From contig CBDAOI010000004.1 in the NCBI GenBank assembly GCA_965198005.1, positions 960,001-1,024,000 on the forward strand: a DNA stretch of 64,000 nt, written 5' to 3'. Numbering within the stretch: the stretch's first letter is position 1; every line of letters begins with the position of its first letter. The position numbers and the translations under genes are program-made. Below the pieces are notes generated by a model that ran no database searches, was not told the DNA's origin, and worked only from the letters and a program-made list of their open reading frames with translations. This document shows, piece after piece, positions 17,880 to 45,153 of the stretch. This stretch comes from Spirochaetia bacterium (lineage in GTDB: Bacteria > Spirochaetota > Spirochaetia > SZUA-6 > Bin103).

Positions 17880-18050
17880 TGTGACGGTTCCTGCATACGA
17901 GCTTAAGAATCTTGTCTTCAGGTCCTCCTCGGCGAACCACAGCAGCCCCTGGTCGCGTTCATACTCCCGCTCACTGGACTGGTCGGTGTTGCTCAGCAGC
18001 GCCACGGTGCCCTGCTCGGCTGACAGGGGGATGTCGCCGGAGCCCTCCAT
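17880..18050 (-). pseudogene. Short cdiA fragment (FHA-2/DUF637-region copy)
   Basis: GSGDIPLSAEQGTVALLSNTDQSSEREYERDQGLLWFAEED matches cdiA at ~31790-31900. Confidence 0.75.
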
Positions 18051-18268
18051 ATGTACGGCAGTCAGGCGGCGGTGAGCAGGGCATTTCCCGGCTCGAAGCC
18101 CCCGTCTGTGCCCTCCTGCGCCTCGCCGAGTTCAGCCTCCATTCCCGCGGCGACTATGGCGCGTGCCAGCTCAGCACACAATCGGATCCTCGACACTTTC
18201 GTTTCTGTTCACCGTGCTGCTACAAGTCTACGACTGATTCTACGTGAAGTACTCTCTCCCGTTCGAGC

Positions 18269-18679
18269 CTAACCCCATAACTGTTTCATTCTGTTTCTAG
18301 TGATCTTCTTGAGCTCGAGATGGGTCTCTGCCAAGTTATCAGGCATGAATACTCTCCTAATGTCTGCAATCAGGTCTCTAATGAATTGAATATTGTCAAG
18401 GTCAAGAAATGACCGGAAATCATCCTCCGACGTTAGGAAATGACGAACGATTTCGATGGAGTACCAGCCCAACTTCTTTCGTCGGTCTTCATACGATTTG
18501 AAGTCACAGAAAAGTTGCTCCCGATCCCTTACTAATCGAATCATAACGATCTCGTCAGTGAGTACTATGAGTCCATTACCGCCGAAGGATCTGGAGTGTC
18601 TCGAGTCGACAATCCTAAACTCATGGTCTTTGTAAAGGAAAGACAAATGCTCCAATAGCAATCTAAGGATCTGATCCAC
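18269..18679 (-). CDS. Putative immunity protein for orphan cassette A
   Basis: Low-GC 136-aa ORF starting 2 nt after the read-through toxin stop at 18681. Confidence 0.65.
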   Translation of the reverse strand: MDQILRLLLEHLSFLYKDHEFRIVDSRHSRSFGGNGLIVLTDEIVMIRLVRDREQLFCDFKSYEDRRKKLGWYSIEIVRHFLTSEDDFRSFLDLDNIQFIRDLIADIRRVFMPDNLAETHLELKKITRNRMKQLWG

Positions 18680-18680
18680 T

Positions 18681-42000: not shown

Positions 42001-43297
42001 CCATGCTGCCGAGTGAGAGCAGGGCGCTCACTTCAGTGTCGGTCGCGCGCGCCAGGTCGATGGTGTCCGCAGTCACCTCCAGAGTCTCTCCGGCCACCAG
42101 CCGCCCGAGACCTGCCACCAGCTTCGAGGCGACAACCGCCAGCACCCCGGTAGCGCTTTGCACCCCTTCGGCGTCCACGCCCGTCGCGGCCAGCGCACCG
42201 TTGCCCAGGTTCACCGTCCCACCGGTCAGACGGACGTCGCCGGCGGCGGTGACCGTGGCGCCGTCCTGCAGATCGACCGAAGTGGCTCCGGTCAGCACCG
42301 CGTCGGTGCCCGCATACAGGGTTCCGGTCACCTGCACGGCATCGCTGTTCGAAGTCGCCTCGATGGTCCCGGCCGCTTGCGCGACAGCCAGCGTCAGACG
42401 GCCGTCGGCGGTCAGCGTCATCCCTTCGGCGCGGGCGGACATCGGCCCCAGCATCCGCACCCCCGCCCCCGCGTCGGTCGCCAGCAACGTGATCTTGCGC
42501 GCGTACATGCCGCCCAACAGCGACGAGTCAATCGCCAGTCCCGGCTCGGAATTGCCGCCTGGCAACGCCGTAACCAGCCCGCTCCGGTACCCGTAGCTGG
42601 TACGTCCCGCGACCAGGTTCAGGTCGCCCCCCGACCGCACGACACCCTCCACCTTGATCCGGCCGGCGATCAGGTCGAACACGTCGGCGGCTTCCAGGTC
42701 AGCGCCGCGCGCGCCGATGCCGAGGTCTCCGCCGGTCACCCGCAGGTTGGCCAGCGCCCCGTCCTCGCCCAGCTCCGGGATACCACTGGCCAGGGTCACC
42801 CGCGGCGTGTTGATAAAGCCGCAGCCGTTGCAGGTGATCCCGTTGGGATTGGCCAGCACCACGTCGGCCGCCGCTCCGTGCACCTCGAGGACACCCGCCA
42901 ACAAGGAGCGTTGGACGCCGGTTATCTCGTTGAGGATCAGAGTGGCGGCGGCCGAGTTCGCCAGATTGGCGTTGCCCTGCACCAGACCTCCCAGCCGCGA
43001 CTGCGAGAGTTCCTGCTTGGCGTTATTGAGGATGGCGCCGCGCTCTGCGACGTCGAACAAGCTGTACTTGTTGTGGGATACGCCCGCCGCGTTCGGGGTC
43101 ACGATATTGACCTGCGGCACGCCGTTCCCGGCCGCGTCGACCTGCGGCCGATTGGCCGCCGCGGCGGCGCTGTCCGCCTCGATCTCGGCGCCCTGCGCCA
43201 GCAGCGGCTGCATCAGGAGCAGCCAGCTCACCACCCCGGCGGTCACCTGTCGTGCCCAGCTCCCGAGGCCGTTCCATCTGTGGCTATCCGTACGCAC
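30057..43297 (-). CDS. cdiA: CdiA/TpsA filamentous hemagglutinin-family toxin (~4,400 codons; about ten frameshifts between 37.1 and 40.8 kb) with C-terminal H-Y-E ADP-ribosyltransferase
   Basis: Signal-like N-terminus, TPS domain (GVSHNKY, NPNGITCNGCGFIN), FHA repeats, YLIETRPEF/LGSDYFL, AENN, then YHYT...TYAT...GGGYE. Confidence 0.88.
33350..33853 (-). repeat. Six 84-bp (28-aa) acidic amphipathic tandem repeats inside cdiA
   Basis: Units like ALLAALVENILGDLNLADDEAVDLASQD; agaccgtcctgcgacg recurs 84 nt apart. Confidence 0.85.
35200..41640 (-). repeat. About five near-identical ~1.29-kb (~428-aa) tandem repeats in the cdiA FHA-1 stalk
   Basis: Marker gaggtcggtctcggc at ~35784, 37068, 38356, 39640 and 40934; diverged copy near 34680. 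Confidence 0.9.
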
Positions 43298-43320
43298 CGG
43301 GGTCCCCGAACGACGCGCGG

Positions 43321-45153
43321 CTAGAACGTCAGAGACGCGCGTGCCGAAAGCACGCCTGACTTGAGCCCTTTGCTGCGCTCTGCCGGAACGTAGAGCAGAT
43401 CGGAATAGGCCACCTCCAACTCGATCCCGTCCCGCCGCAGGCGCATCCCGAGCGTGGCGCCGGCCAGATGGCCCAGCGCGATTCCATAGTGCTGCTGCGG
43501 CAACACCTGACCAAGATCGAGCCCCACGTATGGCTCCATGAGCCTGCTCCCGCTGCTCCCGCCGGAAGAGTTGGCGGCCGGCAGCCGGAGCGAGAACTCG
43601 TTGCGCAGCAGCAGCGCCAGGTTGCCGGACAGCACCGCCTCGCGGACTCCGCGAACACTGCCCGGTCCCCCCAGCGCCATCTGTTGCGCGCCGAACAACC
43701 GATCGGGGGACCACTGCCCGGACAGGGATGCGCTATACAGCGCGGTGAGCGGTCCCAGACCGATCGGGTGTACGTGGCTCAACGAACCGGTGAGCTTGCG
43801 GAACTGGGCCCGCGGAGCATCCGTCGCGCGCGGGTCGTCGCGCACCGCGCCCAGAATGTCCAGCCCGTGCTCCAGCCCAAGCGAAGCGGTCGCCTGTCCA
43901 CCCCAGAGCTGCAGGGCGAACACCAAGTCGATAGCCGCACTCGACGTGGTTCGGCTCGACACGTCTACCCGCTGTTCGGCGACGAAGTTCTCCGTCTGCC
44001 GCCAGCTCAACGCCGCCGCCGCCGACACCTTCGCCACCTCGTCCCGGTAGATGACCCGCGTCAGCTGCCCCCGCACCGTCGTAGAGCTTCCCGAGGTCTT
44101 GATGTCGGCAATCTGACCGGCCAACAGCGACTGATACTGATTCCAGGTCCCGCTGACGGCGAGTGCCCAGTAGCCGTAGGGGAGCGCCAGGTCGCCGGTC
44201 ACGGTGTCGCTGAACGGCGGCCGGCCTGAGAAGTCCAGCGGATGTCCCGCCATGCTGCGCTGATAGCTGGCGGACCACCGATCGTTGATGCCCAGAAGAT
44301 CGTCGTAGCCGAGCGCCAGCCGCGTCTGCTGCTGCCCGGTGAAGGCGCCGCCCAGGTTGTCGGTAGCTACGGCCGCGTGCCAGCGCTTTCCCTGGTCCGT
44401 GCTCACCTGCAACACCGAGCCACCCAGCTCCGCGCCGGCGGCGAGTTCAATGGTTGCCTGGTTCGACGGCAGCCGATTGAGCTGATCCAGCCCCTGCTCC
44501 AGGTCGCGCAAGTTCAGGAGCCTTCCTTCCAACCGGGGAAAGGCGGCGCCGATCCGTCCAGCGTGCCGTCCCGGCTCTCCGTTCATCACGATCCGCTCAA
44601 GGAACCCTTCCACGACCACGATCTCGAGCGATCCGTCACTCAGGTCCTGTTCCGGCAGATACGCTCGCGAGGTGACGTAGCCTTGCTCGACGTAGAGAAA
44701 CGAGAGCTGTTGCAGCACGCCGTTGAGGTCTTCGACGGCGAGGCAACGGTTTTCGTATGCTGCAACGACCGCATCGATGGCGCTGGCGGTCAGGAGGGTT
44801 ACCCCATCGACTCGTATGTGGCGGAGGTCGACGCACTCGCTGCCGGCCGGAGGTGTCGGCACGCCGGGCTCCTCCGGCCACCGTCCCGCCGGCGGGCGGG
44901 TGCGTTCAAGTTGCTGTTGCCGATGCCGGTCGCGTTCCTGCTCCGCCTGAAACCGTAGAATCTCTTCAGCCTGCGTCGCGGCCGGCTCGGTACCCGGATC
45001 CGTGCCGGCGAGGACCGGCGCATGAAACAACAGGACCGCCAGCCATAGTGGCGCGCAGGCGGCACTGCGGTTGCGTCGCCGACCGCCCACGCAGCCGCTC
45101 AAGCGAGGCAGCGCGCGTTTTGCGTCAAAGTCACTCGGGATCGGTAATTGCAA
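43321..45153 (-). CDS. cdiB: CdiB/TpsB (ShlB/FhaC/HecB) outer-membrane transporter
   Basis: POTRA motifs YVEQGYVTSRAYLPEQDLSDG and LNLRDLEQGLDQLNRLPS; GGPGSVRG loop; terminal Phe. Confidence 0.93.
   Translation of the reverse strand: MQLPIPSDFDAKRALPRLSGCVGGRRRNRSAACAPLWLAVLLFHAPVLAGTDPGTEPAATQAEEILRFQAEQERDRHRQQQLERTRPPAGRWPEEPGVPTPPAGSECVDLRHIRVDGVTLLTASAIDAVVAAYENRCLAVEDLNGVLQQLSFLYVEQGYVTSRAYLPEQDLSDGSLEIVVVEGFLERIVMNGEPGRHAGRIGAAFPRLEGRLLNLRDLEQGLDQLNRLPSNQATIELAAGAELGGSVLQVSTDQGKRWHAAVATDNLGGAFTGQQQTRLALGYDDLLGINDRWSASYQRSMAGHPLDFSGRPPFSDTVTGDLALPYGYWALAVSGTWNQYQSLLAGQIADIKTSGSSTTVRGQLTRVIYRDEVAKVSAAAALSWRQTENFVAEQRVDVSSRTTSSAAIDLVFALQLWGGQATASLGLEHGLDILGAVRDDPRATDAPRAQFRKLTGSLSHVHPIGLGPLTALYSASLSGQWSPDRLFGAQQMALGGPGSVRGVREAVLSGNLALLLRNEFSLRLPAANSSGGSSGSRLMEPYVGLDLGQVLPQQHYGIALGHLAGATLGMRLRRDGIELEVAYSDLLYVPAERSKGLKSGVLSARASLTF

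Follow-up and report, generated by a model that had tools for sequence, protein, structure and literature searches.

A putative imported and decaying contact-dependent inhibition island in a Spirochaetia bacterium, with recognizable toxin tips of NAD+-linked folds

In the characterized contact-dependent inhibition (CDI) systems, CdiB exports the filamentous protein CdiA, which binds a neighbouring cell. The part of CdiA that follows the (A/V)ENN boundary, the C-terminal region (CT), is delivered into this neighbour. The N-terminal sub-domain of the CT guides entry and is known as the entry domain in Escherichia coli CdiA-CTs, the extreme C-terminal domain poisons the cell, and a small protein encoded downstream protects siblings by binding the toxin. 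Nucleases and pore-formers predominate among CdiA tips. Orphan cdiA-CT/cdiI modules have a recognizable architecture, with homology to cdiA up to the boundary and divergence beyond it. Here, we describe a locus in a 64,000-nucleotide stretch of the genome of a Spirochaetia bacterium (positions 960,001–1,024,000 of contig CBDAOI010000004.1, assembly GCA_965198005.1; hereafter the window). Its minus strand quite likely carries a type Vb (two-partner secretion; TPS) CDI island, composed of cdiB-cdiA-cdiI and four orphan cdiA-CT cassettes, which has been imported, is decaying and has NAD+-linked folds in four of its five toxin tips. Gene identities, folds, conserved residues, immunity synteny and frame breaks in the assembly are the direct basis of this reading; NAD+ consumption, the choice between transferase and hydrolase, delivery and loss of function are what we infer from them.

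Toxins that deplete NAD+ or transfer ADP-ribose are well known from type VI and type VII secretion; most of those assigned to CDI are predictions from catalogues. A 2012 catalogue of polymorphic toxins already listed Tox-RES, Tox-ARC and several Tox-ART families, some of them, including Tox-RES, with delivery by type V secretion systems (PMC3482391). NADase tips have been well studied in the Rhs and PAAR effectors of type VI secretion systems, and a single Serratia Rhs locus carries two NADase CTs that differ from each other (PMC10539506). CD38-like ARCtox domains, which are NAD(P)+-depleting polymorphic toxin domains, have been reported fused to CDI systems (PMC12605009), and TreX has been grafted artificially onto CdiA (PMC11606950). 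A literature search, with most subscription journals and supplements outside its coverage, returned no title or abstract reporting a native CdiA tip assayed as an NADase or an ADP-ribosyltransferase (ART). The kinds of toxin found here are already known; what is new is three uncharacterized toxin-immunity families and, in a largely decayed locus, a strikingly high share of NAD-linked tips. The three families are an ART-fold family (423 representatives, no Pfam model), a Tne-like NADase clade and a toxin family with at least 209 relatives; their cognate immunity genes have been identified, which makes each pair directly accessible to cloning and assay. A census could turn the concentration of NAD-linked tips, for now a curiosity, into a testable claim.

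The nearest plasmid-borne relative of the cdiB gene is alphaproteobacterial: a ShlB/FhaC gene of Agrobacterium, with which it shares 46.7% identity across 91% of the query. Furthermore, the conjugative Agrobacterium tumefaciens plasmid NZ_CP092894.1 carries cdiB, a DUF637-containing cdiA and a small open reading frame (ORF) in the same B-A-I order as the window. A DUF637 pretoxin region, an ENN-type boundary and an immunity ORF that overlaps the toxin stop are common to the window, the Agrobacterium locus and E. coli-type cdiBAI. However, the Agrobacterium CdiA is annotated as one coding sequence of 6,195 bases (21719–27913 of locus L069), whereas the cdiA of the window is enlarged by five 1.28-kb repeats and is broken in frame in the assembly. 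It ends with a TGA at 30057–30059 and its 5′ end lies approximately just below the end of cdiB; the longest cdiA ORF, with a GTG at 43714, would overlap cdiB by ~390 bases, and translation probably begins shortly after the cdiB stop instead. Pfam finds DUF637 (E ~1e-21) in three regions, belonging to the main gene, orphan 1 and orphan 2. The AENNVF boundary of the main gene is repeated in orphan 2 at 19536–19553, and its counterpart in orphan 1 is AQYNEL at 27673–27690. Up to this boundary the orphans are 91–96% identical to the main gene at the nucleotide level, and beyond it they diverge (blastn), the upstream cdiA homology being retained as in E. coli-type orphan modules.

A first-pass annotation, made from the sequence, had proposed cdiB-cdiA-cdiI followed by alternative toxin tips. 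The Pfam framework bears this out, with four cassettes beyond cdiI (orphan 1, a RES cassette, a TNT stub and orphan 2), and the proposed limits of 17880–45153 fit the locus (Table 1). All of the motifs quoted for the tips are present on the minus strand where they had been placed, far beyond chance. The interpretation built on them survives in part: a CDI locus and the NAD+ folds of four recognized tips stand, and the description as an arsenal is too strong. A fifth tip, the decay of the cassettes and the interruption of cdiA had been overlooked.

Table 1. Features of the island, numbered by position in the window.
Feature	Position	Strand	Basis
cdiB, Omp85-type TPS transporter	43321..45153	-	Pfam ShlB E 7.7e-76, POTRA_2 E 8.6e-24, POTRA_3 E 4.8e-19
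cdiA, ~13.2 kb	30057..43300	-	TPS domain, GC3 frame plot, tblastn of repeat copy 1
TPS secretion domain of CdiA	42392..43180	-	PF05860 E 2.4e-45, residues 185-447 of the 40676-43732 frame
Five tandem copies of a 1284-1288 bp unit in cdiA, 89-94% identical	35374..41801	-	Self-blastn, copy alignment
DUF637 pretoxin region of main cdiA	30915..31403	-	PF04830 E 8.2e-21 and 1.7e-22 (two scans)
AENNVF, VENN-like boundary of main CdiA-CT	30684..30701	-	Sequence
Main CT N-terminal sub-domain or linker	30435..30683	-	Part (30436-30612) common to RES cassette, blastn 91%
Main toxin domain, predicted H-Y-E-type ART-superfamily fold (FHYT, GTYAT, GGGYE)	30060..30434	-	Family search, AF2, Foldseek, VIA
cdiI, immunity gene of main tip, 113 aa	29719..30060	-	ATG overlaps cdiA TGA (ATGA)
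Orphan 1 (cassette B), cdiA 3′ fragment, 908-aa ORF	26713..29463	-	92-96% nucleotide identity to main gene and orphan 2; Pfam
Orphan 1 toxin domain, predicted Tne2/Tse6/TNT-type NAD(P)+ glycohydrolase fold	26716..27180	-	AF2, Foldseek, VIA
IS66-family transposase remnant, between orphan 1 toxin and immunity gene	25666..25995	+	PF03050 E 6.4e-12, positions 233-282/284 only
Displaced immunity gene of orphan 1 toxin, 116 aa, low-GC	25125..25475	-	tblastn
RES cassette (cassette C), degenerate	24024..25079	-	PF08808 E 3.4e-11, blastn, translation
Candidate immunity ORF of RES cassette	23588..24040	-	Position only
ISAZ013-type transposase remnants	22584..23530	-	PF07592 E 1.1e-13, positions 13-68/308
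MatE gene fragment in array	~22670..22900	-	Pfam E 4.4e-4
TNT stub, last ~44 residues	22118..22252	-	PF14021 E 1.7e-10, positions 45-86/88, match 22118-22250
Orphan 2, cdiA 3′ fragment	18684..21818	-	DUF637 19767-20255, AENN boundary, N-terminal CT sub-domain 19026-19343
Orphan 2 toxin domain (LGSYPGYI..ASYFDIG..FLD..LS.PK..E..YL..W.NQW)	18684..19040	-	209 related proteins, 10 genome loci
Immunity gene of orphan 2 toxin, 136 aa	18269..18679	-	Downstream-ORF matches elsewhere
Last cdiA scrap, 139 bp, end of island	17921..18059	-	86-92% nucleotide identity to 20633-20771, 28782-28910, 31781-31899
IS66 remnant beyond last cdiA scrap	17214..17477		Pfam

The toxin domain of the main tip, with the motifs YHYT (30375–30386), TYAT (30315–30326) and GGGYE (30114–30128), occupies the last ~110 residues and belongs to a family with 423 cluster representatives at E ≤ 0.001, of which 48 reach E ≤ 1e-30. 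In this family the domain is always C-terminal. A Pfam scan of 22 longer members out of the 150 listed matches revealed RHS repeats in ten, WXG100 with a type VII secretion signal in one and DUF6861 in one, and no Pfam family over the toxin part of these 22. At least 90% of 45 aligned sequences, 44 of which come from the 150 listed matches, keep H18 (in FHYT), Y38 (in GSYAT) and E107 (in GGGYE). The AlphaFold2 (AF2) model, calculated from an alignment of 129 rows, has a pLDDT of 92.4 and a pTM of 0.82. Its best Foldseek matches are the Tpt1/KptA RNA 2′-phosphotransferases (E 5.5e-4), with Tne2, exotoxin A and PARP2 next; among the 43 matches listed, the top 22 are Tpt1/KptA or Tne2, and one reaches E ≤ 0.001. 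VIA gives Z scores of 9.4 for Tne2 (98 of 119 residues aligned), 9.3–8.0 for the NAD-binding domains of Tpt1/KptA (82–98 residues overall), 6.5 for DarT, 6.4 for Scabin and 5.6–5.4 for TreX, diphtheria toxin and pertussis toxin. The remainder of the VIA matches listed are ADP-ribosyltransferases or NADases, except for CC0527 (three rows, uncharacterized) and the Agrobacterium protein 6b (two). FHYT is aligned with YHGT of a Tpt1 in a sub-threshold profile match, which pairs its His with the His of HGT. The modelled ART core and, judging from sequence, the H..Y..E pattern are common to the main tip and to Tpt1/KptA, DarT, Scabin, TreX and TreTu. The main tip lacks the N-terminal RNA-binding lobe of Tpt1, so that Tpt1 residues ~87–181 alone align, and the identity is 18–21%. 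The model thus places the main tip in the ART superfamily, with an H-Y-E pattern, and the domain probably either transfers ADP-ribose to a macromolecule or hydrolyses NAD+. One relative of the main tip (P0053, 1226 residues) has an ART-fold domain at 882–1008 followed by a YwqJ-like deaminase at 1159–1216, giving two toxin domains in one protein.

Orphan 1 comprises a DUF637 region (27916–28404), the AQYN boundary, an N-terminal CT sub-domain (27169–27498) and an intact toxin domain with the motifs FVRV (26977–26988), LALP (26881–26892), VPPGT (26836–26850) and GGIQ (26770–26781). Relatives of this toxin were found as four proteins of similar length in the protein collection and at 41 metagenome loci. 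N36, F65-V66-R67-V68, P100, P103 and Q137 are invariant in 27 orphan-1-type sequences (23 of the 41 loci, three of the four proteins and the window copy). R67 and Q137 may be the counterparts of the catalytic Arg and Gln of TNT, judging from the likeness of the motifs to the TNT C-terminus. The AF2 model has a pLDDT of 88.2. The top Foldseek rows are all NADases (Tne2, Serratia Rhs1-CT, Tse6, fungal NADases and TNT), the best at E 4.6e-3. The best 12 VIA rows are likewise all NAD(P)+ glycohydrolases: Tne2 has a Z of 11.2 (r.m.s.d. 2.0 Å, 102 of 119 residues), Rhs1-CT 10.2, Tse6 9.1, fungal NADases 7.3–5.6 and TNT 5.0, and the next, unrelated row has 4.3. Structure 6XTD is that of the Serratia Rhs1 NAD(P)+ glycohydrolase (PMC10539506). 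Orphan 1 thus shares its predicted fold with Tne2 of Pseudomonas protegens, Tse6 of P. aeruginosa, Serratia Rhs1-CT and TNT, together with the arrangement as a C-terminal tip with its own small immunity protein, and it has no detectable sequence similarity to them; we regard it as a Tne2/Tse6/TNT-like NAD(P)+ glycohydrolase, placed by its modelled structure and not by sequence. A language-model search, a lead only, gave eight TNT clusters among 30 neighbours, the best at 0.92. Sub-threshold Ntox10 matches (E 0.006–0.03) were found in four orphan-1-type members (one of five proteins in one scan and three of 24 in another). The carrier of the domain is CdiA here, and elsewhere Rhs proteins or an autotransporter passenger. 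In the autotransporter forms (metagenome loci L050:2321–4090, L052:199–1950 and L054:552–1718) the Tne2-like domain is N-terminal in proteins ending in an autotransporter beta-domain (PF03797, E down to 4e-46), where it would be a type Va passenger rather than a C-terminal polymorphic tip.

Two further tips had been recognized as RES motifs and a TNT remnant, and both attributions are upheld by Pfam matches above the cut-off. The RES cassette consists of a cdiA scrap (24683–24986), a CT linker (24475–24651) and a RES domain (24027–24428). The latter scores 43.8 bits against a Pfam cut-off of 23.2 and covers profile positions 33–137 of 157 (match within 24027–24515). The cassette is truncated at its 5′ end and lies in one frame with in-frame stops at 24738–24740 and 24516–24518, and inspection of the translation revealed no VENN or pretoxin region. 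It shares the Pfam match above the cut-off with the RES toxins (Xre-RES pairs and Tox-RES) and differs from them in lacking profile positions 1–32 and 138–157; in contrast to Xre-RES pairs, no Xre/DUF2384 antitoxin was seen. The TNT stub holds APWFGQ (22196–22213) and GEGIQY (22175–22192), is 47% identical to the TNT C-terminus of locus L004 and has MatE and transposase fragments upstream. The domain matches identify the two pieces as remnants of two further toxins of NAD+-degrading families. An ORF at 21833–22060 gave no match in the family searches.

The fifth tip, that of orphan 2, is interrupted by a TGA at 18921–18923 within the toxin domain, and the same frame is open for 79 codons further. 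When read through with X at this position, the domain retrieves 209 proteins at E ≤ 0.01, many of them linked to Rhs or PT-HINT, and ten genome loci in Thermoanaerobaculia, Omnitrophota and actinobacteria. It has no match in Pfam (E up to 10), NCBIfam (E up to 1) or the PDB chains, as a single sequence or as a profile. A Pfam scan of 119 homologues revealed delivery domains (PT-HINT and RHS) and scattered sub-threshold matches. YdgH_BhsA-like and Cas_VVA1548 matches (16 members each, best E ~0.01) were considered and read as noise. The toxin is, by its sequence relatives, a member of a widespread polymorphic-toxin family without a recognizable fold. A weak lead comes from a language-model neighbour (score 0.88), a cluster in which 45% of members carry PF02267 (ADP-ribosyl cyclase). 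PF02267 is not among the 25 most-matched of the 48 Pfam families found in the 119 members and is unmatched by the read-through protein. The comparison with ARCtox has this lead as its link, and the orphan 2 domain, of ~110 residues, has no PDB sequence match.

The earlier suggestion that the tips consume NAD+ is therefore narrowed by these results: four recognized tips have NAD+-using folds, the main tip and orphan 1 by AF2, Foldseek and VIA and the RES and TNT pieces by Pfam, and the fifth has no known fold, so that the NAD label covers the recognizable tips and need not extend to all tips. Neither of the modelled tips, main or orphan 1, has a nuclease or BECR fold, and turnover of NAD+ is what the models would imply. 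Several observations weigh against such an implication. The Foldseek E-values quoted above are weak for both tips, and a common fold is no proof of NAD chemistry. Neither toxin domain has a Pfam, NCBIfam or PDB sequence match; for the main tip no ART family was found in Pfam (E ≤ 10) or NCBIfam (E ≤ 1), the sole trace being an RNA 2′-phosphotransferase at E 0.2. The Pfam TNT family (PF14021) is unmatched in 24 orphan 1 relatives, the four proteins and the window copy, and hhalign of orphan 1 against a four-sequence TNT alignment gave a probability of 2.3%, with the C-terminal G..QY motif alone aligned. ART-fold enzymes, moreover, vary widely in substrate, and the modelled fold of the main tip suits transfer and hydrolysis alike.

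We give even chances to an explanation in which the NAD theme reflects coincidence or ascertainment rather than selection, with arrays recording past recombination and NAD folds being among the easiest to recognize. The fifth tip, which has no known fold and escaped the first reading, is in keeping with this explanation, as is the known abundance of NADase and ART tips among polymorphic toxins. Furthermore, three of the four NAD-linked tips fall into one structural superfamily (ART/TNT), so that the four cannot be counted as independent draws. A proportion of four tips in five at a single locus would nevertheless be high if nucleases and pore-formers dominate CdiA tips, a premise that is taken from the general picture of CDI and not from a count made here.

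Which NAD+ reaction the main tip would perform bears on the same theme. One possibility, rather doubtful in our view, is that it is a Tne2-like NAD(P)+ glycohydrolase, so that every recognizable tip kills by NAD depletion alone. Its top VIA match is indeed Tne2, and at ~110 residues it is as small as the Tne NADases; the Z scores for Tne2 and Tpt1, however, are within 1 of each other. The main tip also retains the Glu of GGGYE, whereas TNT-type NADases carry a Gln there and orphan 1 has an invariant Gln. Its H..Y..E pattern and its neighbours Tpt1/KptA, DarT and Scabin, which are transferases acting on nucleic acids, likewise speak against a pure glycohydrolase.

The tips were also predicted to form uncharacterized toxin-immunity pairs. 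Pairing is supported for three cassettes (main, orphan 1 and orphan 2); the RES cassette has a candidate by position, which gave no match in the family searches, and no immunity partner of the TNT stub was found in the neighbourhoods of three TNT loci. A weak homologue of cdiI lies directly downstream of a related toxin in the viral-contig locus L067 (BLASTP E 6e-5). The modelled complex of the main tip with cdiI scores 0.69, against 0.01 for the best control, a score that is reached by 116 of 157 solved complexes and by two of 215 mismatched pairs; at least 92% of contacts recur between runs, and the partner has a pLDDT of at least 86. The modelled interface involves toxin residues 20–21, 38 and 109–115, adjoining H18, Y38 and E107, which suggests that cdiI binds the main tip near the NAD cleft. 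For orphan 1, the ORF directly downstream of the toxin matches 25128–25433 of the window in 14 of 31 metagenome loci (best E 7.7e-21); ten of the 41 loci were left out as truncated, containing stops or being autotransporter forms. The immunity gene is therefore identified as the ORF at 25125–25475, shifted by 1.2 kb by the IS66 remnant; family searches returned no known family for it. For orphan 2, the ORF downstream of the related toxin matches 18272–18682 in three of the nine genome loci used (out of ten), with E-values from 7e-16 to 6e-20.

The CTs are, as their sequences indicate, assembled from exchangeable halves. Orphans 1 and 2 share the N-terminal sub-domain of their CTs, with 41% identity across 110 residues (E 9e-24), and the main and RES cassettes have a common linker of ~60 residues (91% nucleotide identity, 24475–24651 against 30436–30612). 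By analogy with E. coli, the common N-terminal sub-domains would be entry domains. If the island worked as the characterized CDI systems do, CdiB would export CdiA, CdiA would contact a neighbour and deliver its CT, and the immunity protein would bind the toxin; the main tip would then transfer ADP-ribose or hydrolyse NAD+ and the orphan 1 tip would hydrolyse NAD(P)+, as predicted from their models.

The present state of the locus argues for loss of function. The five repeat copies in cdiA differ by single-base and two-base indels, and the reading frame, followed by the GC3 plot and homology to copy 1, switches nine times (at ~40830, 40590–40490, 40330, 39025, 38600, 37725, 37619, 37385 and 37131). 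In the frame that starts at the TPS domain the first in-frame stop is at 40673–40675, and the own-genome cdiA pieces fall in different frames. All nine switches lie inside the repeat and none elsewhere in cdiA, which points to repeat-driven mutation or to assembly error; the giant tandem repeat either is a hotspot at which frames are lost or misleads assemblers. Contigs of four sequencing runs (X2 and X3 from one sample, X4 and X5 from another study) were compared over repeat copy 2 only. All four runs contain both contigs that have the extra base at 37386 and at 37618 and contigs that do not, and the form bearing it can only stem from copy 2, since none of the other four copies has it in the assembly. 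At 37719 the base is kept in X3 and absent in X4, with no cover in X2 and X5. X4 has no cover in 36784–36909; these gaps are given no weight, and short multi-copy contigs cannot phase the repeat. From the mixed contigs at 37386 and 37618 it follows that at least two shifts seem real, and that at 37134/5 may be an error. We consider cdiA a likely pseudogene in this strain.

A contrasting explanation, in which the CDI weapon still works, the frame switches were introduced by errors of assembly or polishing and a full-length CdiA of ~4,400 residues delivers the ART-fold tip, is unlikely, although part of the evidence tells for it and against a broken gene. The nine switches crowd into the 6.4-kb repeat, the region most prone to assembly error, and none occurs in the other ~6.8 kb of cdiA or in 5.7 kb of orphan cdiA sequence. 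Every contig across 37134/5, in all four runs, is without the extra base of the assembly. X2 and X3 may be the assembly's own source, leaving one independent study, and contigs of other copies map there too. GC3 is 0.88–0.97 in the homology-supported frame of every copy, as expected of recently coding sequence, and the main tip, cdiI and cdiB are intact. On the other hand, the extra bases at 37386 and 37618 are present in contigs of two studies; without the base at 37135, the frame entering copy 2 still meets stops at 37551, 37473 and 37452; and other long genes are not frameshifted (rpoB in a frame of 1217 residues, dnaE in frames of 1194 and 1145 residues). The rest of the island, finally, decays independently, with insertion sequence (IS) remnants and in-frame stops.

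This decay of the array is also where the word arsenal no longer applies. Only the main tip and orphan 1 have intact toxin domains; RES is truncated and has two stops, TNT is a stub and orphan 2 has its TGA. Three of the four orphan cassettes are defective and IS remnants interrupt the array, and the immunity genes look intact. After import, the cdiA frame would have been lost in the repeat, cassettes would have become defective and been interrupted by insertion sequences, and the immunity genes would have persisted. As such the locus offers a view of island decay after transfer, in which toxin modules are lost and immunity genes remain.

Import of the island is proposed because DUF637 was found in none of 30 relatives (ten of the genus, eight of the family and 12 of the order) and in none of 400 other genomes of the phylum; its source is, as judged from sequence comparison, probably Pseudomonadota. 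A stricter first look had found no CdiA N-terminus in these 30 relatives. Members of the main-tip family are present in two of 401 genomes and TNT in three of 301, the own genome being counted in both. GC content is 0.51–0.61 at the tips and immunity genes against ~0.70 in the flanks. RHS repeats gave no match among 44 candidates scored in the whole own genome (G000). All three unclassified tip families are mostly Rhs-linked elsewhere, in contrast to this genome. A bolder combination of these elements would have a CDI island cross into a phylum otherwise without CdiA-type pretoxin regions (0 of 400), its array being selected for NAD+-attacking toxins, with the fifth tip a minimal flavodoxin-like or ADP-ribosyl-cyclase-like NAD(P)+ hydrolase and the main tip a Tpt1-like transferase acting on nucleic acid. 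Taken as a whole this is decidedly improbable. If it were true, NAD+, being identical in every recipient, would suit a weapon that moves between distant hosts, and the three uncharacterized toxin-immunity families would hold new NAD chemistry.

That the locus is an adhesin or haemolysin two-partner system rather than a CDI island is very improbable: the TPS domain, ShlB and the haemagglutinin repeats (Fil_haemagg and Fil_haemagg_2, found beside the TPS domain by Pfam) are common to adhesins and haemolysins, but the DUF637 pretoxin regions with their ENN boundary, the variable low-GC tips with a small ORF after each, the orphan tip-immunity modules with 91–96% recombination homology and the immunity genes kept beside the same toxins elsewhere all speak for CDI.

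Several neighbours of the CDI island were observed. An apparently complete MatE gene lies just outside it (15500–16087, minus strand); together with the MatE fragment in the array, it suggests rearrangement or duplication of the island border. On the other side, just beyond a P450 gene that flanks cdiB, a low-GC stretch (48001–53000) includes an AAA_21/AAA_15 ATPase of AbiEii-like type (48791–50083, minus strand; E 9.6e-22). An ORF with a GmrSD N-terminal restriction-endonuclease domain (10924–11991, minus strand; E 3.5e-23) is held in a low-GC stretch at 10001–12000, with 48–56% GC in a genome of 70% GC. A BrxL-like Lon protease is encoded at 55601–57064 on the minus strand (BrxL_ATPase E 4.7e-38, with Lon_C) and may, by its domains, be part of a BREX-type defence system.

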